A stretch of 64,000 nucleotides of DNA from Arsenophonus sp. (GTDB lineage: Bacteria; Pseudomonadota; Gammaproteobacteria; Enterobacterales; Enterobacteriaceae). The stretch lies in assembly GCA_031446105.1 (NCBI GenBank), contig CP132907.1, forward strand, positions 67,921 through 131,920. The letters are read 5' to 3'. Of the stretch, positions 2,108 to 37,876 are shown one piece after another. Each line of letters opens with the position of its first letter. The first letter of the stretch is position 1. Made by a program: the position numbers and the translations under genes. Below the pieces are notes generated by a model. The model was not told where the DNA came from and did no database searches. It saw only the letters and a program-made list of their open reading frames with translations.

Positions 2108-2649
2108 ATGATTAAAAAAAAAATATCAATTTAATTCATCCAATTGTATTAGGAAGATTAGGTTCAACATATGGAGTTAATGGTTGGATGAAAGTATTTT
2201 CATTTACTGAAAATATTCAAGATATTTTTAATTATCAACCATGGTTTGTTAAATTGTTCAAAGAATGGTACAAATTAGAAATAGAAGATTGGAAATATGA
2301 TAATAAAAATATTTTTATAAAATTTAAAAATATTTATGATAAAGAACATGCTAATTTAATGATTAATTATAAAATTATAGTAGATTCAGCACAGTTTCCT
2401 ATTCTTAAAAATGGTGAATACTATTGGAAAGATTTGATTGGTTGTAAAATTTTTAATACTCAAAGTTATTATTTGGGTTGTGTAACAAATTTAATTGTAA
2501 CAGGAGCAAATGATGTATTAATATCAAAAAACTTTAAAGATTTTTTTGGAATTAAAGAAAGACTAATACCATTTATTTATAAAAAAGTTATAAAGAAAGT
2601 TGATATTAATACTAAAATAATTCAAGTAGACTGGGATCCAAGTTTTTAA
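2108..2649 (+). CDS. rimM: 16S rRNA processing protein RimM, reading frame interrupted at an A10 tract
   Basis: The ORF from ATG 2188 matches RimM ([41 protein letters not shown]). The same frame upstream of that ATG encodes [22 protein letters not shown], matching E. coli PIVLGKMGSSYGIRGW, but it is closed by TAA at 2113-2115. The only upstream ATG (2108) is in another frame and joins across A10 (2114-2123) if one A is added. Length is 542 nt, i.e. 2 mod 3. Confidence 0.8.
2114..2123 (+). repeat. A10 homopolymer at the rimM frame break
   Basis: Ten consecutive A counted directly (attAAAAAAAAAAtatc). An eleventh A gives [16 protein letters not shown]... Confidence 0.9.
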
Positions 2650-2680
2650 AGATTTTTTAAATATTTTTAGTGGAAAAATT

Positions 2681-3423
2681 ATGTGGATTTGGACTATTAG
2701 CTTATTTCCTAAAATGTTTCATGCAATAACAAATTATGGCATAACAAGTCGTGCAATAAAAAAAAAACTATTGAGAATAGAGTGCTCTGATTTAAGAGAT
2801 TATGCTCATGATAAAAGACGTACTGTAGATGATCGTCCTTATGGTGGAGGGCCGGGAATGTTAATGATGTTTCAACCTATTAGGGATGCAATTAATACCG
2901 CAAAATCTTTTATGGGTCGGGATGCTACAGTGATTTATCTTTCACCACAAGGTAGAAAACTAAATCAAAAAGGTATTTTTGAATTATTATTAAAAAAAAA
3001 ATTATTTTAATATGTGGTCGATATCAAGGTATAGATCAAAGAATTATTGAAAGTGAAATTAATGAAGAATGGTCAATAGGTAATTATGTTCTTACTGGTG
3101 GAGAATTAGCTGCAATGGTAATGATTGACGCTATTTCTCGTTTTATTCCTGGTGTTTTAGGTCATAAGCAATCAGCAGCAGAAGATTCTTTTATAACAGG
3201 ATTATTTAATCCACCTTATTATACACGTCCTAAATCATTAGACAACATGGTAGTGCCTGATGTTTTGTTGTCTGGTAATCATAATAAAATTCACCGTTGG
3301 AAAAAAAAACAGGCATTAGGATGTACTTGGCTTAAAAGACCTAAACTTTTGATAAATTTAAAATTAACTCAAGAACAAAAAATGTTGTTATTAGAATTTC
3401 AACAGGAGTATAAAAAAAAATAA
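2681..3423 (+). CDS. trmD: tRNA (guanine37-N1)-methyltransferase TrmD, reading frame interrupted at an A10 tract
   Basis: ORF 2681-3010 matches the TrmD N-terminal half ([30 protein letters not shown]). ORF 3115-3423 matches the C-terminal half ([26 protein letters not shown]). The frame of the second ORF is open back to 3001 and encodes [38 protein letters not shown] (E. coli [38 protein letters not shown]). The two frames meet at A10 (2992-3001). Length is 743 nt, i.e. 2 mod 3. Confidence 0.87.
2992..3001 (+). repeat. A10 homopolymer at the trmD frame break
   Basis: Ten consecutive A (ttaAAAAAAAAAAtta). One extra A gives ...[17 protein letters not shown]... Confidence 0.9.
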
Positions 3424-3496
3424 TAATATATTTTATAAAATTAATAATATATTTAATATATATTTTTTGTAATGGTTTTTTTGAAAAAAGGTAACT

Positions 3497-3850
3497 ATGA
3501 ATAATATTATTCAAGAATTTGAAAAAGAACAAATAAAAAATTGTATTCCATTATTTAGACCAGGTGATTCTATAGAAGTTAAAGCGTGGGTCGTGGAAGG
3601 TTCTAAAAAAAGGTTACAGGCATTTGAAGGTTTAGTAATTGCTATGCGTAATCGTGGTTTTCAATCTTCATTTACTTTAAGAAAAATTTCAAATGGAGAA
3701 GGTATTGAAAGAGTATTTCAAACTTATTCACCAATTATAGATAGTATTATTGTAAAACGGTATGGCGTTGTGCGTAGGGCTAAATTATATTATTTAAGAG
3801 GGCGTTCTGGAAAAACAGCTCGTATTAAAGAACGTCTTAATATCAAGTAA
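3497..3850 (+). CDS. rplS: 50S ribosomal protein L19
   Basis: 117-aa ORF with typical L19 motifs ([42 protein letters not shown]). It is the last gene of the rpsP operon. Confidence 0.97.
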
Positions 3851-4156
3851 TTTTTATTTTTTAAAAAAAATTGTATTTGAAAAATCAAGATAGTCTAATA
3901 ATATCAAATTGCTATGTTTTTAAATTTTTCTTATGAGAAATTTTAGTAAATTTTGTGTTTTATTTATATAATAAATTTATTAATTTCAAAAGATTGATAT
4001 TTTGATTTTTTTATAAAGTTATATTTTTATCTTATTTTAAAAAAAATAATTTTAATAAATGTTATATATAAAAAAGAAAAATAATTTTTTTTAAACAATA
4101 TAAATTATTTAAGCATAAAGTAAATAAATGTTATTGGAATATAAGGTAGATTAATT

Positions 4157-4426
4157 TTGTTAGAATTATTAAAATTACGTAAAAAAATAGATAAAATTGA
4201 TACATTATTATTAAAATTATTAGCAAAAAGAATAAAATTAGCAACGATAATTGGCGAAATTAAATGGAAAAAAGGATTGCCAATTTGTGAAAGAGAACGT
4301 GAAAATAAAATTTTGGAATTACGACGTAAAGAAGCACAAAAAATAGGTATTTCAGCTGATTTAATAGAAGATATTTTACGTCGTATTATATGTGAATCTT
4401 ATAAGTATGAACAAAAAAAAATATAA
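4157..4426 (+). CDS. tyrA: stand-alone chorismate mutase domain (N-terminal fragment of tyrA; the prephenate dehydrogenase domain is missing)
   Basis: 89 codons with a TTG start, AAGG 10 nt upstream and an in-frame TAA at 4142. LELLKLRKKIDKIDTLLLKLLAKRIKLATIIGEIKWKKGLPI...DLIEDILRRIICESYKYEQKK aligns without gaps to E. coli TyrA residues ~4-92 ([42 protein letters not shown]...DLIEDVLRRVMRESYSSENDK). It sits at the syntenic tyrA position between rplS and bamD. No ORF or recognisable similarity follows it. Confidence 0.72.
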   Translation: MLELLKLRKKIDKIDTLLLKLLAKRIKLATIIGEIKWKKGLPICERERENKILELRRKEAQKIGISADLIEDILRRIICESYKYEQKKI

Positions 4427-5326
4427 ACATGTATTTTTTTATTTTTATGATAAATTTATTAAATAAAATTTTTTATTTTTATTTTTTACTAATATTTATT
4501 TAAAAATTTTTTATTGTCTCTTAAAGTATATTGTGCAGTAATATTTTTATAAGTGATAATACGTTTATTTTACTTTAAGTTATTTTTTTCAAAAATTAAA
4601 TTATTTTTTCTCAAAACAATAAATATTTATATTTGTTAATTATTAATTAATAATTATTATAAAGTTTTTAAAATTTTATTGCTTGTTATTTTTTATATAT
4701 TTTTTTAGAGAACATCTTTTGAATATAAAATAAAATTACATTATGTAAAATTAGCAAAAAATTTAATTATCTATATTTGATTTTAAAAATTATATTTTTA
4801 TTGATTATTTTTACTTGGTTTATCAAATTTAAAAAAAATAAATATTAAAATAAAAAGATATCATTTTATGCTATATACTTATATTATATATAAATTTAAT
4901 TTTTTATTTTATATATAAACAAACAATAATTTTATTAAAAAATATTTTAATTTTTATCTGTATTATTATTCTTTTTGTTTTAAAAGATCTTTAAAATAAA
5001 TAATTATCAAATATAAAATTACATTTTTTTAATTAATGAAAATCTGGTAATTATTTCTTTATAACTATTTTCTATTATAAATAATTTTTTTTGTAGAAAT
5101 TTTTTATGATTTTTTTTAAATATTAAAAATTTTTATCATTTTTTTAAAAAAAATAATTATCTGTTAATTCATAAATGATATTTTAAAAAATTTAAAATTT
5201 TTAATAATAAATTTATTATATGTATTAAAAAATAAAAATGTCTTTATTATTTTTAATTATTTTCTAAATTAAGAAATATGTATTTTTAAATATAATATTT
5301 TATTTTTTTAGATTATTTCATATTTT

Positions 5327-6061
5327 TTATTTTTTAAAAGGATTCAGTATTAATTGAACTACTTTGTTTTTTTCATCTTCTAAACCTAATTTATCATAGG
5401 CGTTTTTCATATAATGCAATGCATTTCTTGTGTATTTGCTTTCTGGAAAATTTTTTAACATCTCTTCAGTGCGATTAATAATTGCAATGTAAGCACCACG
5501 TTTATTATAATATTGAATAATAGACAATTGATACTTAGCAAGTCTTTCTTTTATTAGGATTAAACGTTTTGCAGCATCCTTAATATAAACACTATTAGGA
5601 TAAGAATGAATAATTTGATTAAAACTCTTAAAAGCTGCGATAGCATATTGAGGATCTTTATCAGAATAATCAATACCAAAAAAATCTTGTAATGCATTTT
5701 TGTCTATTTTTTGTGCACTTAATCCTCGCATATATAAAACATAATCAATATTAGGATCATTTGGATTTGAGAGAATAAAATTATCAATTGTTTTAATGGC
5801 TAATAATAATTCTGATGATTTATAATAAGCATAAATTAAATCTAATTGAGCTTTTTTTTTATATAAACTTAATGGATAATTATTATATAATTGTTCTAAT
5901 AATTTTATAGCTCCTTTATAATTGTATTTTTTTAATTTATCTTGACTGCTTTTGTAAATACTATTTTGAGAATTTTCTGATATAATATTATTTCTGGAGC
6001 ATCCAATAACAAATAAATTAATCGTAATAAGTATTAATAGATATCGTAATTTTATTTTCAT
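5327..6061 (-). CDS. bamD: outer membrane protein assembly factor BamD (lipoprotein)
   Basis: 244 aa with lipobox FVIGCS. LDLIYAYYKS, NPNDPNIDYVLYMRGL, DKDPQY, YPNS.Y..DA.KRL...K.RLAKY match E. coli BamD. It is divergent from rluD as in E. coli. Confidence 0.93.
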   Translation of the reverse strand: MKIKLRYLLILITINLFVIGCSRNNIISENSQNSIYKSSQDKLKKYNYKGAIKLLEQLYNNYPLSLYKKKAQLDLIYAYYKSSELLLAIKTIDNFILSNPNDPNIDYVLYMRGLSAQKIDKNALQDFFGIDYSDKDPQYAIAAFKSFNQIIHSYPNSVYIKDAAKRLILIKERLAKYQLSIIQYYNKRGAYIAIINRTEEMLKNFPESKYTRNALHYMKNAYDKLGLEDEKNKVVQLILNPFKK

Positions 6062-6191
6062 TTATTTATTTCCTATAAATATTTTTATAAAATTTCTAAT
6101 TTTTGTTTAATGAATTTATATAATAATTATATATTTTAATTAAAAAATAGATATTTCAAATAAAACATAAATTTTTATTTTATTTATATAT

Positions 6192-7145
6192 ATGTTTAAA
6201 AAAATACAACTTAATGCAAAAATATTACCATCACAATTTTCTCAACGTTTAGATCAAGCACTAGTTATTTTATTTCCTAATTATTCTAGAACACAGATAA
6301 AAAAATGGATTTTAAATAATAGAGTTCAGGTTAATGGTAGATATATAAATATTCCAAAAAAAAAAGTTTTAGGTAATGAAAACATTTTAATCAATCTTTT
6401 GATTGAAAAAAAAATATCTTTAAAAGCAGAAAATATTCCTTTAAATATTATTTATGAAGATAATGCAATACTTGTTATTAATAAACCTTCAAATTTAGTT
6501 GTCCATCCTGGAATTAAAAATCCAAATGGAACATTATTAAATTCATTATTATTTCATTATCCTAAAATTATTAATGTTCCTAGAGCAGGTATAGTCCATA
6601 GATTAGATAAAGGTACTACAGGATTAATAGTGATTGCAAAAACAATAACTGCTCATTTTAATTTAAGTCAAGCTATAAAAAATAGAAAAGTTATACGTGA
6701 ATATGATGCTGTGGTAAATGGTCTTATGCAATATAATGGGACAGTAAATCAGCCAGTTGCTCGTCACCCTATTAAACGTATATATATGTTCATTCATAAA
6801 GCTGGAAAACCTGCTATTACGCATTATAAAATAGCAGAAAAGTTTCGTATACATACTAGAATAAAATTAAGATTAGAGACAGGTAGGAAGCATCAAATTC
6901 GTGTTCATATGGCATATATTAATCATCATATAGTTGGTGATCCTGTATATCATGGCTCAATTCGATCATTAAAAGGTTTTTCTAAATCATTTATAAGAAT
7001 GCTTAAAAAATTCAATCATCAGGCACTTCATGCTAGAAAGTTGCGTTTGTATCATCCTATAACAGGTAATTTAATGGAATGGTATGTAGATCCTCCAGAA
7101 GATATGCTGATGTTAATTGATATGCTTAAGAAAGATTCATTGTAA
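6192..7145 (+). CDS. rluD: 23S rRNA pseudouridine synthase RluD
   Basis: 317 aa. Has the S4-like N-terminus (QRLDQAL...), IIYEDNAILVINKP, the catalytic HRLDKGTTGLIVIAKT, LETGRKHQIRVHMA and QALHARKLRLYHPI. Confidence 0.95.
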   Translation: MFKKIQLNAKILPSQFSQRLDQALVILFPNYSRTQIKKWILNNRVQVNGRYINIPKKKVLGNENILINLLIEKKISLKAENIPLNIIYEDNAILVINKPSNLVVHPGIKNPNGTLLNSLLFHYPKIINVPRAGIVHRLDKGTTGLIVIAKTITAHFNLSQAIKNRKVIREYDAVVNGLMQYNGTVNQPVARHPIKRIYMFIHKAGKPAITHYKIAEKFRIHTRIKLRLETGRKHQIRVHMAYINHHIVGDPVYHGSIRSLKGFSKSFIRMLKKFNHQALHARKLRLYHPITGNLMEWYVDPPEDMLMLIDMLKKDSL

Positions 7146-7749
7146 ATAAGTAAAATAAAAAAATAATATTAATATAAAATATTAATATATTTATTATTTT
7201 ATTAATAAAAATCTTTAGATTTTTTTTATAAAAATTGTATTTTTAATAAAAAATTTTGAATGGTAAAAATTAAAATTTAAATATAAAATATTTATTAATT
7301 TTTTATTTATTTTTAAATTGATATTTAAATTAATTGATAATATTTGTATTATAATTTTGTAAAAAAATAATTTTTTTATATAAAATTTATTTATTTTTTT
7401 AATAAAAATGCTTTTTATACATGTATCGACTATTTTATTTTAAATAAAAGATAAGAAACAAGTATTTTTATTATTAAATATTGTAATTTTTTTATAAAAA
7501 GATATTTTTTATGATAAAATAAATTTAGATAAAACATTTATTGTTAAATAAATTTTAGTATTTATTTTTATGTAATTTACAAAAAAATTATAAGAAAATA
7601 TTTTGAGAATTAATATAAAGAATAATATTCATATTTTTATAAATTAATAAAATTATTGTATAATAAATATATTTTTTATAAAAAATGATTTATATAAAAA
7701 TATTACAATATTTTTTATAGATTTTTTTGATTATCTTTTGGAGATTTTT

Positions 7750-11491: not shown

Positions 11492-11934
11492 TTTTTTAAA
11501 AATTAAAAAGATTAAAAAAGTAAATAGTATATATTTTAAAAAATTTTTTTTAAATGATGATAATGTAAGGTTGTAATTTAATGCATATTTTAATAAGATT
11601 TAAAAGATAAATACGTAATTTTTTATATACATTTTTTATAAAAAATGCCGAAAATAAATTAAAAATTCTACCAATTAAAAGTATAATTTTTATTTTTTTT
11701 CGCAGTTAATCTGTGTTTTTATTTTGTTTTATTTTATTTTGTAATAAAAAAATATAAAAAGATATTTGCTTATTCTTTAAATTACATATAATTTTTCAAC
11801 ATGAAGTTATATTATAATAAAATTTTAATATTATTTATTAAAAATATTAATTATTATTGATATTATATAAATACATCAATAATCTATTATATATAATTTT
11901 TAAAAATATACCGCAAGTTTAAGAACCCACCATT

Positions 11935-15347: not shown

Positions 15348-15424
15348 CGGCGAGTAGCGCAGGTTGGTAGCGCAACTGGTTTGGGACCAGTAGGTCGGAG
15401 GTTCAAATCCTCTCTCGCCGACCA
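15348..15424 (+). tRNA. proM: tRNA-Pro (anticodon UGG)
   Basis: Perfect acceptor CGGCGAG/CTCGCCG. The anticodon arm is CTGGT-TTGGGAC-CAG..., the T loop is GGTTCAAATCC, and CCA is encoded. It is almost identical to E. coli proM. Confidence 0.92.
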
Positions 15425-16479
15425 TAATAAAATACATTTTGTTATTTTTTGATTTTTATTTTTTATTATATAGGAATTATTTTTATTATAAATTTGTAAT
15501 TTTTATTACAGTTGATATGATAAAAAAATATTTTTTAATATCAGATTATAATAAAATATATTATATAGAATATAAAAATATCGGTAAAAATTTATTCTTT
15601 ATAATTTTTTTATTATTTTTTTTAAATTAAAAAATTATCAACTTTATATTATAAGATATAATTAAAATAAATTAAAAACAATTTTTTATAAAATTTAATA
15701 GATTATTTTTAAATTTGTAATAATTATGAATATAAATACTTTATTTATTTTTTTAAAATATTAATTGTATTACTATTAATAATTTTATTATAAAATAAAT
15801 TTTATTTTTTTTAAAATTTTTATTAGTATTTTTTAAGTTATTAAAAAATATTAATTTTATTTTATTTTTTTTAATATATTAAATATAATTTATAAAATTA
15901 TTAATTTACAAAATGCTTTAATTAAAAAGCATAATTTTTAGTACATTTATCTGTTTTGATTGATTTTTAATCAAAATTAATTATCACATATTAGTGAAAT
16001 ATGTACTAAAAAAATAGATAATAAAACAACAAACAAGATTGATGATCTTTTTTAATTAGATTAAAAAATAACTAAATTTAATATTTTTTTTATTAGCTAA
16101 AATAATTTTTTTAATATTTTTATTTTAAAATATTTTTATTTTGACATTATATTTGAAATAATTTTATATCATATTTTGTTATTTAATATTTATAACAATT
16201 TATAAAATAATCAATATTATTTTTCGTAATTTTAATATTTTTGCAATTAATTCTTGTTTACTATTTTCTTAATAATAAAAATTTTTTAGAAATTGCAAAA
16301 AAGATAATACGAGGAATGTTTATTTTTTTGGATCTTTAAATTAATAAATTAATTAATATTTTAAAGATTTTTTTTGTTTTTGAATGTTATATTTTTTAAT
16401 ATAATAAGTCATTATGCCATTTTTTGAATTGTAACAATTTTGATTAATAAACTATAAAAATAATTATTTAATTTAATTA

Positions 16480-17420
16480 TGTGTACAAGTTTTTTTTAAT
16501 TTATATTTTGTTTTGTAATTAATATTTTTCTTAATTTTATTTTATATTTTTTTATTCTTTATCATTAAATATTTTTTTTATAAGTTTAGTATTTGTCTTT
16601 GTAAATTTTCTATGTTTTAAATTTTTTTTTACTAAAATAATTTTACTAAAATTTGAAAAAACTGATAAGTGTTTTTATCTAAATATTTTTCAAAAGTATA
16701 ATTATACATTTTAACTTGATAACTATTTCTAAAATATAATTAAAAATTTATTTTTTTAAATAAAGACAAAAATTTTATAATAATGTAATGATTTTAAAAA
16801 GTATAATAATTTTTAAGGTAATATTCTATATCAATAGTAGTTTATTTAAAATTGCAGAAAATATTTTTTTAAATATAATGGTAATGCGTATTTGTTTTTT
16901 TAAACCAAATCTCTTAAGAAAAGCGACAAAAAAATAAAGTATTATTTAATTTATTTAGTTTTATTTTTAATATCTTTTAAATCTTTTAAAAAATAAGTGC
17001 AAAAAGAAATGAGGCATTTTGTATTGACGATATAAACTCAATTTTTTTATAGTATTGCTGATAATTAATAAATTTTTAGATAAAGAATTTATGAATATTT
17101 CTTTTTATAAAATATATTGCAATATTGGTTTCTTTATTTAGCAATGCATTTTCTATTTTTTAACAAATAAACTTTTTCTACTAATTTTTTTATATAGAAA
17201 AGTATTTATAAAAAATAATTATCTTGAATAATTATTGAAATAATTTAAATTTTTAATTTTATATGATATTTTTCTATATTTTTATAAAATATTTTTTTTA
17301 AAGTTTTAATAAACTTTTTCTATATAGTTATATTTAGTTTTTTAGTAAAAAACTAAATTTTTTATGAAAGTGAAAGTTACATTTAAATTATTAAGTGATT
17401 TAATTAAATTTAAAAAAATT
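16480..17420 (-). pseudogene. hemC: eroded relic of porphobilinogen deaminase gene hemC (boundaries approximate)
   Basis: The minus-strand translation of 16933..16868 is FFVAFLKRFGLKKQIRITIIFK. E. coli HemC has LAVAGLKRLGLESRIRAAL (from memory), giving 9 identities in 19 positions with no stop over 22 codons. Flanking codons are riddled with stops. Position and strand fit the E. coli order proM...hemYXDC(-) cyaA(+) cyaY lptM dapF. Confidence 0.4.
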
Positions 17421-18594
17421 CATATTTTTAGTTATTTTTAAGTATTTTATATAATTTTAATAAAATATATCATCTTTAATAAAATTATTTTTTTTATTAA
17501 AGACTATTTTATATAAAATATAAATCTATTAAAATACATAAAATATGAAGTATCATAAAAAATTTTTTATATATTTAATATATTTATTTTAATAAATAAT
17601 CTTTATTTTTTATTTATAAAAATTATCATATCTGTTTATTTCTATTTTTTTAAATATTATTATTTTTTATTTAATTAAATTTGACAATAAATTAAATTAT
17701 TTTATAATTTTTTTATATTCTTATATTTAGATTTTTAATAAAAAATATATTTATTTATAAATAATTAATTAATAAAAATATCATATTTTAAGTTCAATTA
17801 TTTTAAAAATATTTATTTATTTTTAAAAATTTAAAATTAAAATATATTTATGCTATTCTAAAATTAGAAATTAAAATATTATTTATATAATCAATATGTT
17901 GTTTTTGAATATTTTAAATACTTAAATATTAAAAAATTTTAAATTAAAAAAAATAATAATTTAATTTTATTTAATAAATTTTAGAATTTATAATTCTTAA
18001 TTTATATTTTTATTATTAATTTAAAATAAAAATTATTAAATTAATAAAAGTAATATTTTTTATTTACAGAATTTTAATTTATAATAAAAATAACAATGTT
18101 TTATATTTTTAAATAAAATTTAATAAATATTTTTTAAATATATTTCTTATAAAAAATGTATTATTTAGTATAGTCTAAAGTAATTTTTATGTAATTTTTT
18201 GTGAATTAATAAATAAATATTTATATATATTAAACATCGATTATTAATTATTTTTGTTGTATTTTAGATTTTTAGAAATGTAATAATTTAATAAATTTTA
18301 AATAATTTATGATATTAAAATATAATTAAAATTTTTAATTTAAGAATTTTAGTATTTTTTTTAAATAGTTAAAAAAATTTGTAAAAATATTAAAAAATAA
18401 TGTATTTAATTTTTTATTATTTTTTGATTAGTTTTTTTAACTATATTTTTTTAAAAAAAGTATTTTTACAATAAATGATTTTTTATTTATTAATTTATTA
18501 AATTATTTTATGATTATTTAATATCATGATTATTTATATTAATATCATTTTTTTGTTTATTTTTAACTTTAAAAACATAAAGGGTAAAAAAATA

Positions 18595-18765
18595 ATGATT
18601 AAAATATTTAATATAAAAAAATTTTTTTTTATAATTTTGGTAAGTGTTTTATTAAAATTACTTTCAGGTTGTGGTATAAAAGATGTTCTTTATTTAAATT
18701 CTGAAGTAATAAAAAGTAATGAGAATGAAGAAGATAAATTTTTATTAAGAGATATCAAAAATTAA
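18595..18765 (+). CDS. lptM: small lipoprotein LptM (YifL)
   Basis: 56 codons from an internal ATG. The signal peptide plus lipobox LLSGCGIKDVLYL matches E. coli YifL LTGCGLKGPLYF. It lies immediately upstream of dapF as in E. coli. The longer ORF from 18526 is probably an artefactual extension. Confidence 0.7.
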   Translation: MIKIFNIKKFFFIILVSVLLKLLSGCGIKDVLYLNSEVIKSNENEEDKFLLRDIKN

Positions 18766-18829
18766 TAGAAAATATCATAATTAATCGATTAATTAAAATA
18801 TGTAATTTTTTGATTATTTTGGAGAAAAA

Positions 18830-19654
18830 ATGCAATTTTCAAAAATGCATAGCTTAGGTAATGATTTTATGGTAGTAGATGCAGTTAATCAAAATATTTT
18901 TTTTTCCTCTAAGTTAATTTGTCATTTATCAGATCGTCATAAGGGTATTGGTTTTGATCAGCTTTTATTGGTCGAGGCACCTTATTACCCAGATTTTGAT
19001 TTTCATTATCGTATCTTTAATGCCGATGGTAGTGAAGTTTTTCAATGTGGTAATGGTGCTCGTTGTTTGGCACATTTTGTTCGTCTTAAAAAATTAAGTC
19101 ATAAACGTAATATAAAAGTTAGTACTAAATCAGGAAAGATGACATTATTTATATTAAATAATCAAGATGTTTGTGTAAAAATGGGTATACCTCAATTTGA
19201 GCCACATAAAATACCATTTAAAGCTTTTAATATAAAAAAAAAATATAAGATTAAAATTAAAAAGAAAAGAATATTATGTGGTGTAGTTTCGATAGGTAAT
19301 CCACACTGTGTTTTACAGGTTGAAAATATTGATACTACCGAGGTTTTATTATTAGGTAGCTTAATAGAAAAGCATAAATGTTTTCCTGAAAGAACCAATG
19401 TTGGTTTTATGCAAATTATAAATAATAAAAATATTCGATTGCGTGTATATGAACGGGGTGTAGGAGAAACAAATGCTTGCGGAAGTGGTGCTTGTGCTGC
19501 TGTTGCTATTGGTATTCAGCAAGGTTTGTTACAAAAAAATGTTACTGTTGATTTACCTGGTGGTATTTTAAAAATTTTTTGGAATGGATTTGGTCATTCT
19601 TTATTTATGAGTGGTCCTGCAACGCATGTTTACGATGGTATCATTAATATATAA
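18830..19654 (+). CDS. dapF: diaminopimelate epimerase
   Basis: 274 aa, same length as E. coli Dap[36 protein letters not shown] and [17 protein letters not shown] carry both catalytic Cys motifs. GGAG lies 6 nt before the ATG. Confidence 0.96.
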
Positions 19655-24371: not shown

Positions 24372-24712
24372 AAAAATATTTCCTAGATTTTTTATAAATA
24401 TTAATATTAGTCCATAGTTATAAAAAATTTTCTTGATAAAGGTAATCAAAATTTGTTTTGATATCGAATGCATTTAGTATATTTAATAATTTATACATTT
24501 TATTATATAATTATATTAATTAACTAAAATATCTTTTAAAAATTTATTTATGTAAGTTCATTGTTTTTTATAAAATAACATATTTAAAATTATTTAATTG
24601 AGTAAATATAACTTTTTTACATTTGATAAAAATCATAAAATTAAGATAATAACTTTACTAGGATTTTTAATTTATAATACTGAAGATGTACTAAATAAAT
24701 TTATTGCAAAAA

Positions 24713-25860
24713 TTATTTTTTCATATTGGGGGCTTTTATATCTAATGCATTAAAATATTTTTATTTTTTTAATTAAAATGATATTTTATATGATAAATTA
24801 AAATAATATTAATTAATAAATTAATTTTTTTATTTATTATTTTTTAAATATAAATATTCTTTAAATATAAATTTTTTAATATAAATAATATAAAAACCAG
24901 TATATTTTTTACTAAAAAATAGTATTTAATTTTTGATGTTTTTTCAATAAACTAAATTTATTAGCATTTTATTAATTATAAATTTTTGGTCAAGAAAAAA
25001 ATAAATCTCAGAATTATAAAAAATATCTAGTAAACTTGAGAATTTATTTTAATATTTTTTGCAGATAAAATTTATTTTTACTGAAATAGAAACTGGGATC
25101 AATTTTTGTTTTATTTTTTTTATTTAGATATCAGTAAGTCAATTTTTTAAATTTTTATCTAAATTGAACATTTTTTTATGTGTAAAAAAAATATTGAAAT
25201 TATTGCATGTAATTTTTATAAAATATTATTTTTAATATTTAATTACAGTTAGAAACCTAAATATTTTTTAGTATTTATAGAAATAATTAATCGTAAATTT
25301 ATTTACTTATAGTGAGTTAAATATTCTTTTATGATAAAGCTGATATTGTTATTATTTCTACTAAAACTTTTATGTCAATAATAAATAAAGCGATAATTAA
25401 ACGTGCAATAAAAGTTAGAAATAATAAATTTATTTTATTAATTTATATGCTGTTTTTCAAAGAAATTGAAGAAAATGTTAAAAAATAAATAATATTTATT
25501 TTTTATATAATTGATTATTTAGAATTTATTATTCAAGAAAGTAAAAAAAATAGAAAAGTAATTGTTATTTAGGGAAAAAAGATTATTAAATAAAAAACAG
25601 TATTATTTTTATAAAGTGATTGTGTTATTAGGCATTAATTAACATAATTTACAATTATGGTAAATAATCAGAAAAAATAAGAATTTTAATGGCAGAAAAG
25701 TACTAATTTCGTTAAAAACTCTTATAAATATTAGATTAATAATTAATAAATGAACTTACTTAGTTAATAATTTTTTTAATTTATGTACTACTAAATCGCT
25801 TAAAAAGCAATTTTATATAATAATATTAATTATTTTAATATTTTAAAAGATAGTTTAGGA
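24713..25860 (+). pseudogene. hemA: eroded relic of glutamyl-tRNA reductase gene hemA (boundaries approximate)
   Basis: There is no ORF of 60 aa or more here, but three translated blocks in three different frames match E. coli HemA in order. Block 1, 24980-25000: KFLGQEKK vs QILGQVKK. Block 2, 25032-25125: KLENLF*YFLQIKFIFTEIETGINFCFIFFI vs [34 protein letters not shown]. Block 3, 25321-25487: IFFYDKADIVIISTKTFMSIINKAIIKRAIKVRNNKFILLIYMLFFKEIEENV vs ...[49 protein letters not shown]. It sits at the syntenic slot between lolB and prfA. Confidence 0.72.
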
Positions 25861-25890
25861 TTAAAAGATTCTTAAGGTTTTTAAAAAATA

Positions 25891-26967
25891 ATGAAGGTTT
25901 CTATAATCAAAAAGTTACAATTATTAGAAAGACGTTATGAAGAAATTCAAATAAATTTAGGTAAAAAAGAAGTAATTGTTAATCAAGAATATTTTAAATT
26001 ATTATATAAAGAATATTCTCAGCTAAATGATTTAATTAAATGTTTTAGATCATGGCGTGTTCTTCAGGAAGAAATAGTTACTACTCAGATATTATTAAAT
26101 GATCCTGAATTACATGAAATAGCTAATGAAGAACTCATACATTTTAAAAAACTTAATGAAAAACTTGAAAAACAATTACATATTTTTCTTATACCTAAGA
26201 ATCCAGATGATAAAAAAAATTGTTTTTTAGAAATTCGAGCAGGTACTGGTGGTGATGAAGCGGCAATATTTGCTGGTGATCTTTTTAGAATGTACAATAG
26301 ATATTCTGAATCACGTGGTTGGGGTTTTGAGGTAATGCATTTGACCGAAGGAGAACATGGTGGATATAAAGAAATTATTATTAAAATTTCTGGTGATTCT
26401 GTATATGGTCGGTTAAAATTTGAATCAGGTGGACATCGTGTTCAACGTGTGCCAACTACAGAATCTCAAGGTCGTATTCATACTTCGTCTTGTATGGTTG
26501 CTATATTAGCTGAAATTCCAGAAAAAGAATTATCTGCAATTAATACAAGTGATTTAAGAATTGATACCTTTCGTTCATCAGGTGCTGGTGGACAACACGT
26601 GAATACTACTGAATCTGCTATTCGTATTACTCATGTTCCTACTGGTATTGTAGTTGAGTGTCAAGACGAACGCTCACAACATAAAAATAAAGCTAAAGCT
26701 TTGTCAGTTTTAGGTTCTCGTATTAGAGAGAAAGAGATACAAAAACGACGTGAAGCAGAAACATCAGAACGTCACAATTTACTTGGCTCTGGAGATCGTT
26801 CAGATAGAATAAGAACATATAATTTTCCACAAGGTCGTATTAGTGATCATCGAATTAATTTAACACTTTATCGTTTAGATGAAGTAATAAATGGAAAATT
26901 AGATTTATTAATTCAACCTATTGTTGATAAATATCAAACAGATCAATTATCTTTTTTTCAGAAGTGA
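25891..26967 (+). CDS. prfA: peptide chain release factor 1
   Basis: 358 aa with a PxT-type decoding region and the GGQ motif ([42 protein letters not shown]). The stop codon is TGA. Confidence 0.98.
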
Positions 26968-28617: not shown

Positions 28618-28657
28618 TAAATATATTTTTTATATGATTTATAATGAAGATATATAA

Positions 28658-29542
<885 letters not shown>

Positions 29543-30220
29543 AATAAATATTATTTTAAAAGATTATTATAAAATTTTATTGAAATTTTTTATGAAATAA
29601 CATTACTTTAATAATATTTTATTTAAATTTTTAGGCATATTATTTTTAATATTTTTTGCATTAATTTTATATAATAAGAGTAATAAAATTATAAAAAATA
29701 ACAATTTTTTTATGCATCAAAAAAATTATTTTTGATTTTTTTAATTAAAATTTTATAAATTATTTTTTTTATGTTATATTTTAATTTTTATTAAGTTTTT
29801 ATAATAAAAATTATTTAATTTTTTATATTATTTTAATCAAATATTTATTAATGCAGAATTATATTATCATGTGATTTTTGTGATATTTTTTTATTAAAAA
29901 AAAGTTATTTTATTTATATAAATTGGATATTATAAGATTTGTATTTTTTTTTAATAAATCTAAATTATTAAAAAATAAATAGAAATTTATTTTTTTAATA
30001 TTATTTTTTAAAGAAATATATAAAAATTAAATAATATAATTAATAAAACATATAAAATTATTTTTTTATATACAAATACGTGCTAATTTATAAGATAAAA
30101 ATTATTTTTTCTTTGCTAATGTTTTCTGTTGATTTTTTAAAGTTTTATTATTTTTTAAAAAAATTATATTTTTTATATATTATTATTTTATAAAATATTA
30201 ATTAAATATTTTATTTTTAT

Positions 30221-30310
30221 TGGCGGTGAGAAAGGGATTCGAACCCTTGATACAATTTAATGTATACATACTTTCCAGGCATGTTCTTTAAGCCACTCAG
30301 ACACCTCACC
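30221..30310 (-). tRNA. serX: tRNA-Ser (anticodon GGA)
   Basis: The reverse complement GGTGAGGTGTCTGAGTGGCTTAAAGAACATGCCTGGAAAG...GGGTTCGAATCCCTTTCTCACCGCCA is a type II tRNA with a long variable arm. CCA is encoded. It is close to E. coli serW/serX. Confidence 0.9.
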
Positions 30311-30830
30311 ATATAAAAAAAATTATACATTTTTTTTTATAATATTTTATATAAAAAATTGCATTGAGATTTGAAAATATAAAGATTATAAAAAATACTT
30401 TTTTAAAAAAATATATTATTTTTATAGAGTGTAATTTTATATATAATTTATAATAAATGAATTAATATTTTAATTATTTTTTTAATATATAATTTAATTT
30501 TAGAAATTTTTTTAATCTTGTAGATATTTTAATATATATTATTTCTTAAGTAAAAGGATATTATCAATTTAATAATAATTTATTTTTACATTTTAATTTA
30601 AATTTATATTTTTTTAATATATTTTATTAAAAATAAAAATATATTTTTCTTTTTATTATATTTATTTATATCATAGTAAAAAAAATAATGCTAAATTTAG
30701 TGTGTATAAATTGAAATAATTGATTTGTTTTTTATTAAAAAAATTAATAATTATTTTTATTTTAGTACCTTTTGAAAGTGATTAGTGCACTTTGTGAATT
30801 TTATTACAGTAATTTTTTAAAAAATATTAT

Positions 30831-32351
30831 ATGAATTTATTGAAAACATTAGCAGCAATAAGTTCTATGACTATGTTTTCTAGAATGTTGGGATTTATTC
30901 GTGATGCTATTATTGCACGTTTTTTTGGTGTTGGTGTAGAAACAGACGCTTTTGTAATTTCTTTTAGATTACCAAATCTTTTGCGCCGTATTTTTGCAGA
31001 AGGAGCATTTTCTCAAGCTTTTGTTCCTATATTAGCTGAATACAAAAATAAAAAATCTGATAATGAAACTCGTACTTTTATTTCTAATATTGCTGGTTTT
31101 TTAATATTGGTTTTAGCAGTTATTACATTAATTGGGATGTTTAGCGCACCTTGGATTATTTACATAGTTACACCTGGTTTTAGTGAAATCAGTAATAAAT
31201 TTGATTTAATATTTTCTTTATTAAAAATAACTTTTCCTTATATATTTTTTATTTCTTTAGTATCTTTAACTGGTGTAGTTTTAAATACTTGGAGCTGTTT
31301 TACTGTTCCTGCTTTTACACCTGTTTTTCTTAATATTAGTATGATTATTGCAGTGTTATTTTTGGCACCATACTGTACACCTCCTATTTTAGCGTTAGGA
31401 TGGGGAATTTTAATAGGAGGTATATTACAGTTATTTTATCAATTACCTTTTTTGCAAAAAATAGGTATGTTGGTACTACCTCGTATTTCTTTTACAAATA
31501 AAGATATGTGGCGTATGATTAAGTTAATGGGGCCATTGGTTATCTCTGCTTCAATAAGTCAAATTTCTTTAATTATGAACACTATGTTCGCTTCTTTTTT
31601 GCGTGAAGGATCTGTTTCATGGATGTATTATGCTGATAGATTGATGGAACTTCCTAATGGTGTATTAGGTGTTGGATTAGGCACTATTTTATTACCTTCT
31701 TTAGCAAAAAGTGTTTCAATTGGTGATAATAAAGAATATCAACGTTTAATAAACTTAGGATTAAAGTTATGTTTTTTATTAGCATTACCTTGTTCTATAG
31801 TGCTTGCTATATTGGCTCATCCGTTAACGGTTTCACTTTTTCAGTATGGTAATTTTACTTCTTATGATTCAAGAATGACACAATACGCATTAATTGCTTA
31901 TTGTAGTGGATTAATGGGAGTGATTGTAGTTAAGGTTTTGGCCCCTGGATTTTATTCTAAAAAAGATATAAAAACTCCTTTAAAAATTGCAATCATCACT
32001 TTAATTTTAACGCAATTTATGAATTTTATTTTTGTTGATTTTTTAAAACATGTTGGATTAGCATTATCACTTGCTTTATCTTCTTGTTTTCATGCGTTGA
32101 TGCTTTATTCAGAGTTGCGGAGAAAAAAACTATTTTCTCCCTTATCTGGTTGGAGAAAATTTTTTTTTAAATTAATTATAGCTTTGATTGTTATGACATT
32201 TGTTTTATTACTTATGTTAAATTTTATGCCAATTTGGGAACAAGGTAATATGGTGCTTCGTATTATTCGTTTATTATCGGTAATTTTTATTACTGCTATA
32301 AGTTATTTTTTTACTTTGTTTGTTTTAGGTTTTCGGTTGCGAGATTTTTAG
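30831..32351 (+). CDS. murJ: lipid II flippase MurJ (MviN)
   Basis: 506 aa polytopic membrane protein. The N-terminus [33 protein letters not shown].....[31 protein letters not shown] is typical of MurJ. Confidence 0.95.
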
Positions 32352-32491
32352 TAAATAATACTTTAGTAAAAATTTAAGAAATTTTTTATTTCTGTAAAAT
32401 ATTGTAGGATATTGATTGCAAAAGATTTTTTTATACTTATATGGTTTAAAATATAAATTAATAAAACAAAAATTAATAAAAATATTTTTTG

Positions 32492-32566
32492 TGCGTCTGA
32501 GTGGATTTGAACCACTGACATCCATCATGTCAAGATGGTACTCTAACCAATCTGAGTTACAGACGC
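32492..32566 (-). tRNA. valV: tRNA-Val (anticodon GAC)
   Basis: The reverse complement GCGTCTGTAACTCAGATTGGTTAGAGTACCATCTTGACATGATGGATGTCAGTGGTTCAAATCCACTCAGACGCA has a perfect acceptor GCGTCTG/CAGACGC and anticodon loop TTGACAT. No CCA is encoded. Confidence 0.9.
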
Positions 32567-32876
32567 AGTAAAATAATATTTTTAATAATTAAAATAATAC
32601 ATTAGTATAATAAATTTTAAATTTGATTTTATCAAATTTATTTTTATTCTCCTTATTATTTAAATAATTTATTAATTAAAAAAAATAAAACAGTATTTTA
32701 AATTAGATATAATTTAGTTAATTTATTTATATGTAAAATTGTTTATTATTTTTTTATCAGATTATTTCTTACTTATAAATATTATAAAATATTTTATTAT
32801 ATTGTTTTTTAAAATATGATTTTTAAATTTTTAAGAATTATAATTAATCTTTTATTAAATTTAGGAATAAAAATTT

Positions 32877-33500
32877 ATGTTTACTGGTATAGTTAAAGGA
32901 AAAGGAACATTAGTTTCTATAAAAAAAAAGATTAATTTTAAAATTTATACTATAAAATTCCCAAAAGAATTACTTATTGGTTTAGAAATAGGTTCTTCTG
33001 TTGCTAATAACGGGTGTTGTTTATCTGTTACTCAAATTTTTAAAGATAAAGTTACTTTTGATTTGATGCAAGAAACTTTAAATATAACGAATTTAGGAAA
33101 ATTAAGAATAGGTGATAAAATTAATTTAGAAAGATCAGCAAAATATGGAGATGAAATCGGTGGACATATTATGTCTGGACATATAATTTGCACAATAAAT
33201 ATTAATAAGATTTTAAAATCACATAAGAATGTAACAATGTGGTTTTATGTCCAACATCCATTTTTGATGAAATATATTTTTTATAAAGGTTTTATTGGAA
33301 TTGATGGTATGAGTTTAACGATAGGAGATATAAAAAATCATTGTTTTTGTGTACATCTAATTCCAGAAACAATTGCTCGTACTAATATTGCAGATAAAAA
33401 TTTAGGTGATACAGTTAATATTGAGATTGATGCACATATTCAAGGAATTGTTGATACTGTTGAGAGAATGATGTTAAAGATATATCCTAAAAGTAAATAA
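32877..33500 (+). CDS. ribC: riboflavin synthase (alpha chain)
   Basis: 207 aa. MFTGIVKGKG.LVSI, NGCCL.VT, FDLM.ETL..TNLG, GGH.MSGHI, KGFIG.DG.SLT.G and HLIPET match E. coli riboflavin synthase (RibC, called RibE in some annotations). Confidence 0.94.
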   Translation: MFTGIVKGKGTLVSIKKKINFKIYTIKFPKELLIGLEIGSSVANNGCCLSVTQIFKDKVTFDLMQETLNITNLGKLRIGDKINLERSAKYGDEIGGHIMSGHIICTININKILKSHKNVTMWFYVQHPFLMKYIFYKGFIGIDGMSLTIGDIKNHCFCVHLIPETIARTNIADKNLGDTVNIEIDAHIQGIVDTVERMMLKIYPKSK

Positions 33501-33801
33501 TTATTTAAATTATATTATTAATAATTATAAAAAATAACAAAAAATTAAAATTAATCATTATTTTTTTAGAAATATATTGATAATAATTTTTTATGTTTGT
33601 TTTATTTAATTAATTGTGATATAATTTTTTTTTATTTTAAATGAATATGAAAAAAAATTTTATTAAAAGTTTAATTTGATAAGAAATTTTTAGGGATTAA
33701 TTATATATTCTTTAGAATATAAAAATAATATTTAGTAATATAAAAAGATATTTAAAACTTGTAATAAAAAATATTATTAGCAATTTTTTAAATAAAATTT
33801 A

Positions 33802-35529
33802 TTACATTCTTTCTATTGTTTCAATACCTAATGTATCTAAACCGATTTTTAAAGTTTTTTGTGTTAATAAAACAAGTTTTAATCGACTTTCTTTCAAAAT
33901 ATCGTTTTTTTCGTTTAAAATAGGACAATATTCATAAAAATTAGAGAATATACAAGCCAAGTTATATAAATAAGTACACATAATATGTGGCATTCCTGAA
34001 TGAGCAACAGATAAAATTGTTTCTTCAAATTGTAATAAACGAATAGCTAGAATTTCTTCATATTTATCATTTAATGTTACTGGTTTTATTAGATTAATCA
34101 AATTGACATTTATATGTTTTAAAATAGAACATATTCTTGTATATGCATATTGCAAGTAAGGTGCCGTATTACCTTCAAAAGTTAATATATTATCCCAATC
34201 AAATACATAATTTGTAGTACGATTTTTTGATAGATCAGAATATTTAATTGCACCAATAGCAACGGCATTAATAACCACAGATAATTCGTTTTCTGGGATT
34301 TTTGGTGTTTTTTTTCGAATAAAGTTTCCTGCTCTTTTAATTGCTTCATCTAGTAAATTTTTTAATTTAATTGTTTTTCCAGATCGGGTTTTAAAGGGTT
34401 TTCCATCTTTAGATAAAATCATACCAAACATATGATGTTCTACTTTTATTGATTCAGGAACATATCCTGCTTTATAGATAATTTGCCATACTTGCATTAA
34501 ATGTTGATGTTGTCGAGAATCTGTATAATATAATATTCTATCAGCATGTAATACTTCGTATCTATATTTCCCACAAGCTATATCTGTTGTAGTATATAAG
34601 TAACCACCATCTTTTTTTTGAATAATAACTCCCATAGAATGACCATTTTTGTTTTTAAATTTATCAAGATAGACAACAATAGCTCCATTACTTTCAACAG
34701 CTAACCCCTTGGCTTTTAGATCAGTAACAATTTCCGGTAACATATTATTATAAAAACTTTCTCCTATGGTATCTTTTTCAGATAATGTAACATTTAATCG
34801 ATTATATATTTTTTGATTATGTTTCATACTAAGATCAACTAAATGATTCCATATTTTGCGACAATTTTTATTGCCAGATTGTAGTTTGATAACATAATTA
34901 CGTGCAAGTGAAGAAAATTCTTTATTTTTATCGTAATATTGTTTAGCCTTTTGATAAAAAAATTCTATTTCAGATAATGATATATTTTTTTTTTCTTTTT
35001 TTGTGGTTTTAAGATATGCAATTAACATACCAAATTGTGTTCCCCAATCACCTATATGATTAGCACGTATAACTTTATGACCTAAAAATTCTAATGTACG
35101 AGCAATAGCATCTCCCAGTATAGTAGAACGTAAATGTCCAATATGCATTTCTTTTGCTATATTTGGGGAAGAATAGTCAATAATTATTGTTTGTGGATTA
35201 ATGGAAGTAATGCCTAATTTAGAATCTTGTAGAGTTAGTGAAATATTTTTTTCTATCCATGATTTATTAAGAGAAATATTGATAAAACCAGGTTCAGCGA
35301 TTTCTATTTTACTGGCAATTTCATCTATTTTTAATAGATTTAAGATTTTTTCAGCTAATTGACGAGGAGGAATACCCATTTTTTTTGCTGCAATCATAAT
35401 TCCATTAGATTGATAATCACCAAATTTTCTTTTTTTTGAAGTACGTATATTAGCATCACTATTTTTAGGGGCACCTGCAGTGATTAATGCATTAGTAATT
35501 TTTTCTGAAAGTAAAGCATAAATGTTCAC
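33802..35529 (-). CDS. argS: arginine--tRNA ligase
   Basis: 575 aa. Class I motifs are present: HIGH-type [16 protein letters not shown] and KMSK-type ([15 protein letters not shown]). [11 protein letters not shown] and DIACGKYRY also match. The C-terminus ends in M as in E. coli ArgS. Confidence 0.97.
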
Positions 35530-36156
35530 TTCATGACCTAAGAATAAAAGTGTTGTATTTGATTTGTAAATATTAGCATAATATTAATTATTTTATCTAA
35601 AATTTATGCAAATGGTTTTTTTATTTTTTAATAAAATGCAAGTTTATTAAAAATAATGATGTAATTCTATATTAGAATTAATAATTTTTTAAAAAAATAT
35701 TAACTTTATTTGATTTATTTTAATTTTATATTTTTTTTAATTTTTTTAATTAAACTATTATTTAAAAATATTGTTTGATATTTTGATTATATCTTTTAAT
35801 AAAAATATTATTTTTTAAAAAATATTTTATTACTATATTTCTATTACTATGATTTTAAACAAGATTTTATGAAATATAATAAATTTAAATAATTGATTTA
35901 TATTTTTTAATTTTTTTTAAAAAATAAAGTTATTATTTTTTTGCATGAGATAATATTTTTTATATTTTGAACTTATTAAAAAAAATTATCAAAATTATAA
36001 AAATTTTATTTTAATTAAGTAATTATTACATGATTATATATTTTTTTATATAGATTATATATTTATTATGCACATATTTTTTTATTATGATTTTTTTATT
36101 TTAAATACAATAATATAAACATTATTTATTTTTCTAATTAAAAAGTAATTATTTTT

Positions 36157-37125
36157 TTATATTTTTTTTGCAATTAAAATAGCTCGTATTGGAGCAGGAT
36201 ATCCTTCTATTGTTAAATTATGATTTTCTGGTTTAAGAAAGTCTTCCAGTGATTCATTTTTCATCCAGAGTGTTTTTCTTTGTTCTTGTATTGTTGTTGG
36301 TGTTTGATTTATAATTTTTATATCGTAAAATCTGCATTTTTTTAACCAAATTTTTAACATTTTTGCTGATGGGATGAAATATACATTGCGCATTTTAGCA
36401 TAACGTTCAGTAGGTATCAAACATTGATTTTCATCACCTTCAATCACTAAACTTTCTAATATTATTTCACCATCTGAAACTAGTTGATTATTTATTTTAT
36501 ACAAATGTTCTAATGGTGAACGGGAATGATAAATAACACCCATCGAAAATACTGTATCAAATATATTCGATACAGGCAGTTGTTCAATAGTTAATGGCAA
36601 TAAATTTATTTTTTGAATGTTACCAAGTAATTTACGAATCGCTTCAAATTGATATAAAGATTTTTCGATAGGATCAATTCCTACTATAAATTTTGCATTT
36701 TCACCCAGTATTCTCCACATGTAATATCCATTACCACATCCTACATCAAGTACTAATTTATTTTTTAATGTTGAAATATAAGGGATTATACGCTGCCATT
36801 TTAAGTTTGATTGCCATTCACTATCAATTTTAATACCATATATAGAAAATGGACCTTTACGCCATGGCATTAACTTTTTTAATAATTGAATAATTTTTTT
36901 CATATCTTTTAAAGAAAGATTTACTTTTTTTTTTGCAATAATTCCTGTTTTTAGATTTATATAATCTGGTGTTATTTTTGGTAAATTATATACTATTTTT
37001 TTCCAATATTGAGATTGTTTATTTTGTTTTTTTTTCCATTGTTCAATTTGATATGGTATAGTTTTTAGCCAAATACTCAGTGGTCCAAGAGCTATTTTTT
37101 GATAAAAAAATCCAAAGTTTATCAT
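36157..37125 (-). CDS. cmoB: tRNA U34 carboxymethyltransferase CmoB
   Basis: 322 aa. PWRKGPF, LDVGCGNGYY.WR, G.DP, FSMGV.YH.RSP..HL and RNVYFIPS match E. coli CmoB. Its ATG overlaps the cmoA stop (ATGA). Confidence 0.94.
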   Translation of the reverse strand: MINFGFFYQKIALGPLSIWLKTIPYQIEQWKKKQNKQSQYWKKIVYNLPKITPDYINLKTGIIAKKKVNLSLKDMKKIIQLLKKLMPWRKGPFSIYGIKIDSEWQSNLKWQRIIPYISTLKNKLVLDVGCGNGYYMWRILGENAKFIVGIDPIEKSLYQFEAIRKLLGNIQKINLLPLTIEQLPVSNIFDTVFSMGVIYHSRSPLEHLYKINNQLVSDGEIILESLVIEGDENQCLIPTERYAKMRNVYFIPSAKMLKIWLKKCRFYDIKIINQTPTTIQEQRKTLWMKNESLEDFLKPENHNLTIEGYPAPIRAILIAKKI

Positions 37126-37876
37126 TTGTTTTGTGCTTTAATGGCTAAGAATGAACCGAAATTAAAATATTGAAAGTATAATTCGTAATGCTGGAAACCA
37201 GCTATATTTAATCTTGATTTGTGTTTTTTTATTGAATCAGTAATCATAATATTATCTAACATTTTTTTTTTTGATGAATTTCTTTTATACTGTATCCATT
37301 AGCAAGTTTAAAATCATAATGCATATTAAATAATAAATTATGAATTTTTTTGTCATTAAAACTAAATTTTTCTGATAATACCAATAATCCGCCAGGATTT
37401 AAACCTTTATAAATGCGATTAATTAATCTTTGACGTTTTATTGGAGTAATGAATTGTAATGTAAAATTCAAGACTACCATGGAAGCATTTTTTATTTTTG
37501 TATTAAGAATATCTTCTAAAATTATTTCAACAGGTATTTTTGTTTTGTAAGCATATAGATATTTTTTGCAAAGTTTAATCATGGATTTTGAATTATCAAT
37601 AGCAAGTATTTTATAGTTTTTTAAATTACTATTACAAAGTATTGATAGTGTTACTGCTCCTAAAGAGCAACCTAAATCATAAACAAAACTGTTAGGTGTT
37701 ATAAAATATTTTGCTAACATTCCTATTATGCTAAGAATATCAGTATATCCAGGAATAGAACGTTTTATCATATCAGGAAAAATTTTTGCAATTTTTTCGT
37801 TAAATTCCCAATTATCTAAGTTTTTAATAGGTTTTATAAATAAAATATCTTTTTTTGTTATTTTTTTTTTAATCAT
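37122..37876 (-). CDS. cmoA: carboxy-S-adenosyl-L-methionine synthase CmoA, reading frame interrupted at an A11 tract
   Basis: ORF 37876..37256 matches CmoA residues 1-~205 ([60 protein letters not shown]). After A11 (plus-strand T11, 37262-37272) another frame encodes [47 protein letters not shown]. coli has [48 protein letters not shown]. That frame ends in a TGA overlapping the cmoB ATG. Length is 755 nt, i.e. 2 mod 3. Confidence 0.87.
37262..37272 (-). repeat. A11 homopolymer (T11 on the plus strand) at the cmoA frame break
   Basis: Eleven T counted on the plus strand (ctaacaTTTTTTTTTTTgatg). A twelfth A in the mRNA gives ...[13 protein letters not shown]... Confidence 0.9.

Follow-up and report, generated by a model that had tools for sequence, protein, structure and literature searches.

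Three genes in one stretch of Arsenophonus DNA, rimM, trmD, and cmoA, are each interrupted by a single frameshift in or beside a sense-strand tract of at least nine adenines. The stretch that was analyzed (hereafter the window) is 64,000 nt long and corresponds to positions 67,921 to 131,920 of the forward strand of contig CP132907.1. The locus raises the question of whether these frameshifts are errors of sequencing or assembly, first steps in gene decay, or genuine lesions with which the genes continue to be expressed. As argued below, the frameshifts are probably real and the poly(A) tracts slippery, such that slippage returns part of the transcripts to the correct reading frame and the lesions are thereby tolerated.

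Structure and repair of the three frameshifted genes

Both rimM and trmD are encoded on the forward strand. In rimM (2108..2649), the frame is lost after codon 5, at an A10 tract (2114..2123) that reads AAA AAA AAA A in the zero frame and is the proposed slippage site; either one additional A in the RNA or a −1 ribosomal shift there would restore the frame. The trmD gene (2681..3423) contains two A10 tracts, specifically tract 1 (2758..2767), which is in frame, and tract 2 (2992..3001), beside which the frame is lost at codon ~109; tract 2 is the proposed slippage site that would rescue the adjacent lesion. The cmoA gene, on the reverse strand (37122..37876), loses its frame at codon ~207, and its proposed slippage site is an A11 tract (T11 on the forward strand, 37262..37272) in which one more A is needed. 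The rimM start codon (ATG at 2108) is homologous to the start in four relatives, and the cmoA stop codon overlaps the start of cmoB (ATGA).

A first-pass annotation of the window had stated that the three spans, 542, 743, and 755 nt, are all 2 mod 3 and that one additional A in tracts of 10, 10, and 11 A repairs each gene, and both statements were confirmed on recomputation. The repair yields uninterrupted proteins of 180 aa (RimM), 247 aa (TrmD), and 251 aa (CmoA), which were scored against full-length NCBIfam equivalog models with curated cut-offs. All three scored above the cut-off over nearly the whole profile: RimM at 169.7 bits against 66.2 (TIGR02273, profile positions 2-165 of 166), TrmD at 306 bits against 195 (TIGR00088, positions 1-231 of 233), and CmoA at 348 bits against 285 (NF011995, positions 2-245 of 247). 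The repaired TrmD is 84-91% identical to its counterparts in relatives.

Alternative starts or re-initiation were considered as the main explanation and rejected, because the first canonical in-frame starts, at 2188 in rimM and at 3115 for the C-terminal part of trmD, would delete conserved residues that are still under constraint. In all three genes, the zero frame closes within 2-4 codons past the tract (stops at 2132-2134, 3008-3010, and 37256-37258); given the density of off-frame stops in such AT-rich sequence, the chance that all three would close so early is ~4%, and the early stops may be a coincidence or may limit the length of the truncated products.

Source genome and sister genomes

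The window has a GC content of 20.5% and an enterobacterial gene order, comprising rpsP-rimM-trmD-rplS, bamD, rluD, clpB, trxA, rho, a tRNA cluster, dapF, ychF, and pth, and continuing with prs, ispE, lolB, prfA-prmC, kdsA, murJ, ribE, argS, and cmoB-cmoA, on to topA and cysB. For TrmD, CmoA, and ArgS alike, the nearest sequences come from louse-fly symbionts of the genus Arsenophonus with reduced genomes, and the window very probably derives from the 874,825-bp genome of the Arsenophonus that lives in the louse fly Ornithomya biloba. All genomes of the study that described this symbiont were assembled with SPAdes from Illumina NovaSeq 2x250 reads (PMC10654098). The same study reported the whole heme pathway to be absent from the O. 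biloba symbiont and, in a figure legend, listed mismatch repair among its missing functions (PMC10654098).

Four sister genomes were used for comparison, namely those of the symbionts of Ornithomya chloropus (OZ032148; 928,669 bp), Crataerina hirundinis (K22b, CP132909; 919,248 bp), O. avicularia (K9a, CP132905; 936,503 bp), and O. fringillina (K20, CP132903; 933,061 bp). Three of the four are Illumina-based, and the four together represent two independent projects. PacBio HiFi reads underlie the O. chloropus host genome and, although the host paper is silent on the symbiont, the symbiont record apparently comes from the same reads. Neighbor-joining bootstrap analysis of 4,775 concatenated residues paired the window with K22b (99%) and K9a with the O. 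chloropus symbiont (100%), with K20 as a third lineage. A tree of ArgS alone (Biopython) was dropped in favor of the concatenated tree, since support at those ingroup nodes that carried values was only 36-53%. Over about 4,500 sites, 155 amino-acid changes were specific to the window lineage versus 55 to K22b, a 2.8-fold longer branch, and the GC content of syntenic DNA was 20.5% in the window lineage versus 23-24% in the comparison with K22b and K20; both the longer branch and the lower GC content fit the reported loss of mismatch repair.

Lesions across the clade

The trmD gene is frameshifted in all five genomes examined, at a site that differs between lineages. In all four sister genomes, tract 1 is A9, one A short, such that a stop is reached and one more A is needed; mapped on the concatenated tree, this A9 is ancestral to the clade and the A10 of the window is a reversion on its own lineage. 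In the window lineage, where tract 1 has reverted, trmD now has a new lesion beside tract 2; at this tract, the O. chloropus symbiont carries an in-frame A10, and K22b, K9a, and K20 carry A9 followed by G. Placing the gap within the motif TTAATT, as it reads in the relatives, requires 1-2 substitutions in addition to the gap, versus 3-4 substitutions if the gap is placed in the tract itself; most parsimoniously, the window lesion would thus be the loss of one A 3 nt past tract 2, where the window reads TTATT (3002..3006).

The other two lesions also have histories that are not simply those of a shortened tract. In the relatives, rimM carries an in-frame A9 followed by G, whereas the window has A10 with a net deletion of 7 nt directly 3′ of it. 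Two relatives, K20 and the O. chloropus symbiont, have an intact cmoA (252 aa) in which the site reads A10-Y-A in frame; in the window, the interrupting pyrimidine was either lost or converted and then lost. In K22b, the same gene has an A11 in another phase and needs one A fewer, and in K9a the break lies at another tract, an A9 derived from AAAACAAAAA that needs one more A. Thus, cmoA is frameshifted in three of the five genomes (window, K22b, and K9a); the window lesion is possibly shared with K22b, and the rimM and trmD tract-2 lesions occur in the window only. The first-pass annotation had described each tract as exactly one A short, which holds as a description of the repair but not necessarily of the history, given the position of the trmD lesion, the 7-nt difference in rimM, and the missing pyrimidine in cmoA. 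It had also stressed the uniform direction of the defects; all three window lesions do need one more A, but across the clade the direction is mixed, as the K22b cmoA lesion requires the removal of one. Since that annotation had itself proposed a mixture of directions as a sign of a biological origin, the mixture favors biology.

An all-against-all survey of the five genomes (~60 kb each) found single-lesion frameshifts only at poly(A) tracts of at least nine. The neighboring cmoB (36157..37125, reverse strand; a 322-aa open reading frame, ORF), which encodes the partner enzyme that uses the product of CmoA, is intact in all five genomes, including the three in which cmoA is frameshifted.

Selection on the broken genes

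Pairwise estimates of omega for 15 intact control genes, compared with K22b or K20, ranged from 0.06 to 0.39, and those for cmoB from 0.17 to 0.20. The estimates for trmD (0.11-0.29) and cmoA (0.10-0.26) were similarly low, and those for rimM were less clear (0.38-0.64). Among the four relatives with the tract-1 frameshift, the 213-215 codons of trmD downstream of the lesion had an omega of 0.15-0.19 (p <= 2e-7 versus neutrality), and change in the 27 upstream codons was mostly synonymous. Constraint on both sides of the shift implies that both halves are read, each in its own frame, and therefore that the frame is corrected. The C-terminal part of cmoA, compared between the window and K22b, which are both frameshifted at the same tract, had an omega of 0.10 (p = 1e-4).

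Amino-acid changes unique to the window branch amounted to 3.9% in RimM, 3.7% in TrmD, and 2.9% in CmoA, and to 3.4% in the 15 pooled controls; thus, none of the three genes showed an excess of amino-acid change on this branch relative to the controls.

Tract inventory and homopolymer background

The window has 11 homopolymer runs of at least 10, each of them a sense-strand poly(A) tract within a gene. In agreement with the first-pass annotation, no in-frame A run exceeds A10: eight A10 tracts are in frame (trmD 2758, rluD 6356, dapF 19234, prs 22295, argS 34985, cmoB 36925, cmoA 37861, and sohB 57800), as is each of the 17 A9 tracts in coding sequence, and in-frame A/T runs of 7-10 within the window genes number more than 100. 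Only 3 of the 28 coding tracts of at least A9 are out of frame, specifically two of the ten A10 tracts and the sole A11, and the genome-wide expression mode envisaged by the first-pass annotation was therefore an overstatement. The distribution of run lengths has the same shape in all five genome assemblies.

The non-coding DNA of the window (26 kb, about 10% GC) differs from the genes in this respect, with 79 runs of 8, nine runs of 9, and none of at least 10, where shuffles of the same DNA predict 13-25. Within genes, sense-strand poly(A) reaches 10-11, and runs of at least 9 number 28, about twice the 14 found in codon shuffles.

Interpretation and alternative explanations

The lesions and their context, the sequencing platform of the source genome, the frameshift in trmD throughout the clade, and purifying selection on the out-of-frame parts of the genes are what the analysis shows, and together they suggest the following sequence of events. 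The symbiont is obligate and very AT-rich, mismatch repair is reportedly absent from it, and each lesion is situated inside a sense-strand run of 10-11 A or no more than a few bases away; these long runs would be hot spots of replication slippage where lesions would often arise. RNA polymerase would stutter at the same runs during transcription, such that some mRNAs would carry one extra, non-templated A and give full-length protein, and ribosomes that slip by −1 on A AAA AAA may contribute. With function lost only in part, the lesions could be fixed by drift and could then persist under purifying selection. By analogy with the symbiont systems discussed below, insertion of one non-templated A by RNA polymerase would be the most likely form of rescue. 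The biological reading offered by the first-pass annotation is supported in outline, in that the lesions look real, lie at or beside sense-strand poly(A) tracts, and have counterparts of the same kind in the sister genomes that are conserved under continuing purifying selection, with slippage itself as the proposed part.

Several points weigh against this explanation. We infer slippage in this organism, and the yield of full-length protein that it would provide, by analogy. The rimM gene is the weakest case: between the window and K22b its omega of 0.64 is indistinguishable from neutrality (p = 0.14), although the comparison with K20 gave 0.38. The rimM and trmD lesions of the window are confined to its lineage and could be recent, and for them the pairwise omega values mostly reflect history from before the lesions. 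The three breakages of cmoA in five genomes also fit relaxed selection, and no genome of the clade decays faster than that of the O. biloba symbiont, which has a branch 2.8 times that of K22b and is about 50 kb smaller.

We regard it as very unlikely that the lesions are artefacts of sequencing or assembly, with each true tract longer by one A and the genes intact. The shared +1 direction of the window lesions and their location at the longest homopolymers of the window would be expected from such errors, which are still conceivable for the A11 of cmoA and the A10 of rimM; however, the platform was Illumina, and not the pyrosequencing (454), Ion Torrent, or nanopore methods to which the first-pass annotation had attributed a possible undercall, and every A9 and shorter coding run and eight of the ten A10 tracts are in frame. 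Moreover, the missing base of trmD is best assigned to an AA dinucleotide beyond the tract, and rimM departs from the relatives by 7 nt. Frameshifts of this class recur in all four sister genomes, which stem from two independent projects and of which one is apparently based on PacBio HiFi reads; one of the sister lesions has the opposite direction, and the run-length distributions are alike in shape across the five assemblies. The technical reading of that annotation is thus unsupported. It is also unlikely, less strongly so, that the genes are early pseudogenes with no rescue, in which homopolymer indels that followed the loss of mismatch repair simply inactivated rimM and cmoA and only the first hits are visible. 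Both genes are non-essential in Escherichia coli, hemA has already decayed in this smallest and fastest-evolving genome of the clade, mismatch repair is reportedly absent, cmoA was independently broken in three of the five genomes, and the omega of rimM between the window and K22b points the same way. By contrast, trmD is essential in bacteria and has stayed frameshifted yet under constraint clade-wide, which puts it outside the reach of this explanation; the constraint on the cmoA C-terminus between two frameshifted sister lineages (omega 0.10) is a further point against it. The retention of cmoB in all five genomes, the lack of an excess of window-specific substitutions in any of the three genes, and the absence of a second lesion, despite the density of stops in off-frame AT-rich sequence, also speak against decay; inactivation without rescue may apply to rimM and cmoA and is implausible for trmD.

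Two further alternatives accept the lesions as real and the genes as expressed. Rescue might be mainly translational, through −1 ribosomal frameshifting or sliding on A AAA AAA with tRNA-Lys in place of RNA polymerase slippage, which we consider improbable. A zero-frame A AAA AAA heptamer of the type X XXY YYZ is present at all three sites, each is followed 2-4 codons later by the zero-frame stop, and a −1 shift would yield the same protein as a transcript with one more A; A-AAA-AAG and AAA-AAA motifs are described as −1 shift sites in E. coli (PMC1851650). Nevertheless, no consistent stimulatory structure was found downstream (fold z = −2.0, −0.25, and −1.1 at the three sites versus 0.13, −0.95, and −0.84 for control tracts that are in frame), a shift in the other direction would be required for cmoA of K22b, and direct cDNA evidence from the precedent systems, Buchnera and Blochmannia, points to transcription. 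Alternatively, the trmD frameshift might have been selected as an attenuator that holds TrmD, and here also RimM, far below the ribosomal proteins of the rpsP-rimM-trmD-rplS operon, replacing a lost translational control known from E. coli; the lineage in which tract 1 was repaired would then have been frameshifted again at tract 2 because the frameshifted state was favored. We give this proposal little credence. Slippage-mediated rescue of real lesions remains the explanation that we prefer.

True pseudogenes and other features of the window

The first-pass annotation had found no other broken gene in the window, which was incorrect on two counts. Upstream of prfA lies a multiply frameshifted relic of hemA on the forward strand (25336..25869, within the region 24473-25891, which has 13% GC), in which HemA residues 242-419 are spread over frames 1, 3, 2, and 1 at 41-68% identity (tblastn with K9a HemA; joint E = 1e-23). 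An intact hemA of 420 aa is present in K22b and K9a, and the relic agrees with the published finding that the O. biloba symbiont has lost the heme pathway. Genes with a single lesion at a tract and decayed genes with multiple lesions are sharply distinct. In the O. chloropus symbiont, trxA is likewise a true pseudogene, with a CAA-to-TAA nonsense mutation, a short duplication, and a frameshift (18537-18880 of its compared locus); trxA is undetectable in K9a and intact in the window, K22b, and K20.

The second case is a TyrA (T-protein)-type gene that has been reduced to its chorismate-mutase domain, now a stand-alone 89-aa ORF at 4157-4426 (forward strand) that scores 98 bits against a cut-off of 95.9 (TIGR01799); the dehydrogenase part is lost, and an AT-rich spacer (4427-5326) lies beside it. 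An ORF of ~90 aa for this domain is kept in all four relatives at 81-91% identity with an omega of about 0.15, and it looks like a retained mini-gene rather than debris.

About 41% of the window is free of ORFs, at 8-13% GC. These spacers were scanned for stop-free segments, and those regions covered by a sister locus, which excludes ~13-24 kb and 46-64 kb, were compared with the proteins of the relatives; only hemA was recognizable. Two long spacers, 15424-18525 (~3.1 kb) and 52505-56046 (~3.5 kb), have about 10% GC, no ORF of at least 60 aa, and no recognizable homology, and are presumably fully eroded genes. Finally, a bactofilin-domain protein with a hydrophobic N-terminus is encoded at 38797-39429 (forward strand); its orthologues match PF04519, it has no NCBIfam hit, and it is conserved in the five genomes at 87-90% identity.

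Significance and comparison with known systems

If the preferred explanation is correct, slippage-dependent expression extends from aphid and ant symbionts to an independently evolved clade of symbionts of blood feeders. An essential tRNA methyltransferase gene, trmD, has been out of frame throughout the diversification of the Ornithomya-Crataerina symbionts. In practice, reconstructions of metabolism or function from these genomes should not count trmD, rimM, and cmoA among the losses, and automated tools will overcount their pseudogenes. The O. biloba symbiont, reportedly without mismatch repair, offers a natural test of the rate at which such lesions accumulate. Our literature search found no paper that describes such frameshifts in Arsenophonus; the source-genome paper contains neither the word frameshift nor the word homopolymer, and its supplements do not list trmD, rimM, or cmoA (PMC10654098).

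The pattern resembles several known phenomena to different degrees. Miscalls in 454, Ion Torrent, and nanopore data are similarly one-base length errors concentrated in long homopolymers, but the data considered here are Illumina reads, widespread errors are not seen, one lesion is not in the homopolymer itself, and lesions recur in independent assemblies. As in the −1 frameshifting of E. coli dnaX (A AAA AAG), a slippery lysine heptamer is present at all three window sites, although neither an upstream Shine-Dalgarno-like element nor a downstream hairpin stimulator was found at them. Programmed transcriptional slippage, as in Thermus dnaX (A9), Shigella mxiE (T9), the ORF fusions of IS elements, and Citrobacter tssM (Baranov et al., 2005, PMC1088944), likewise depends on A/T runs of ~9 or more at which RNA polymerase adds or drops bases and thereby fuses two frames. 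Those systems are regulatory or yield two useful products, whereas here the zero frame gives a short truncated product of no evident use, and the sites move between lineages.

The closest parallel is with Buchnera aphidicola and Blochmannia, which are also AT-rich obligate symbionts of insects and in which genes with poly(A) frameshifts give 12-50% corrected transcripts, with some of the frameshifts shared by different species (Tamas et al., 2008, PNAS, and Wernegreen et al., 2010, MBE, cited via PMC5009743 and Williams & Wernegreen, 2010, PMC3017870). In both settings, an otherwise intact and constrained gene has one frameshift, at or next to a sense-strand A tract of 9-12, information-processing genes are involved, and conserved frameshifts occur together with others that are independent or have reverted at other tracts (erfK and ytfM there; trmD and cmoA here). 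The differences are that the present case concerns Arsenophonus (Morganellaceae) in blood-feeding louse-fly hosts and a different set of genes (trmD, rimM, and cmoA), that for two of the three lesions in the window the apparent position is just beyond the tract, and that the earlier cases are the ones with cDNA support. We therefore view the window as a case of a known phenomenon in a new clade and with new genes, most distinctive in that trmD is out of frame in all five genomes examined.

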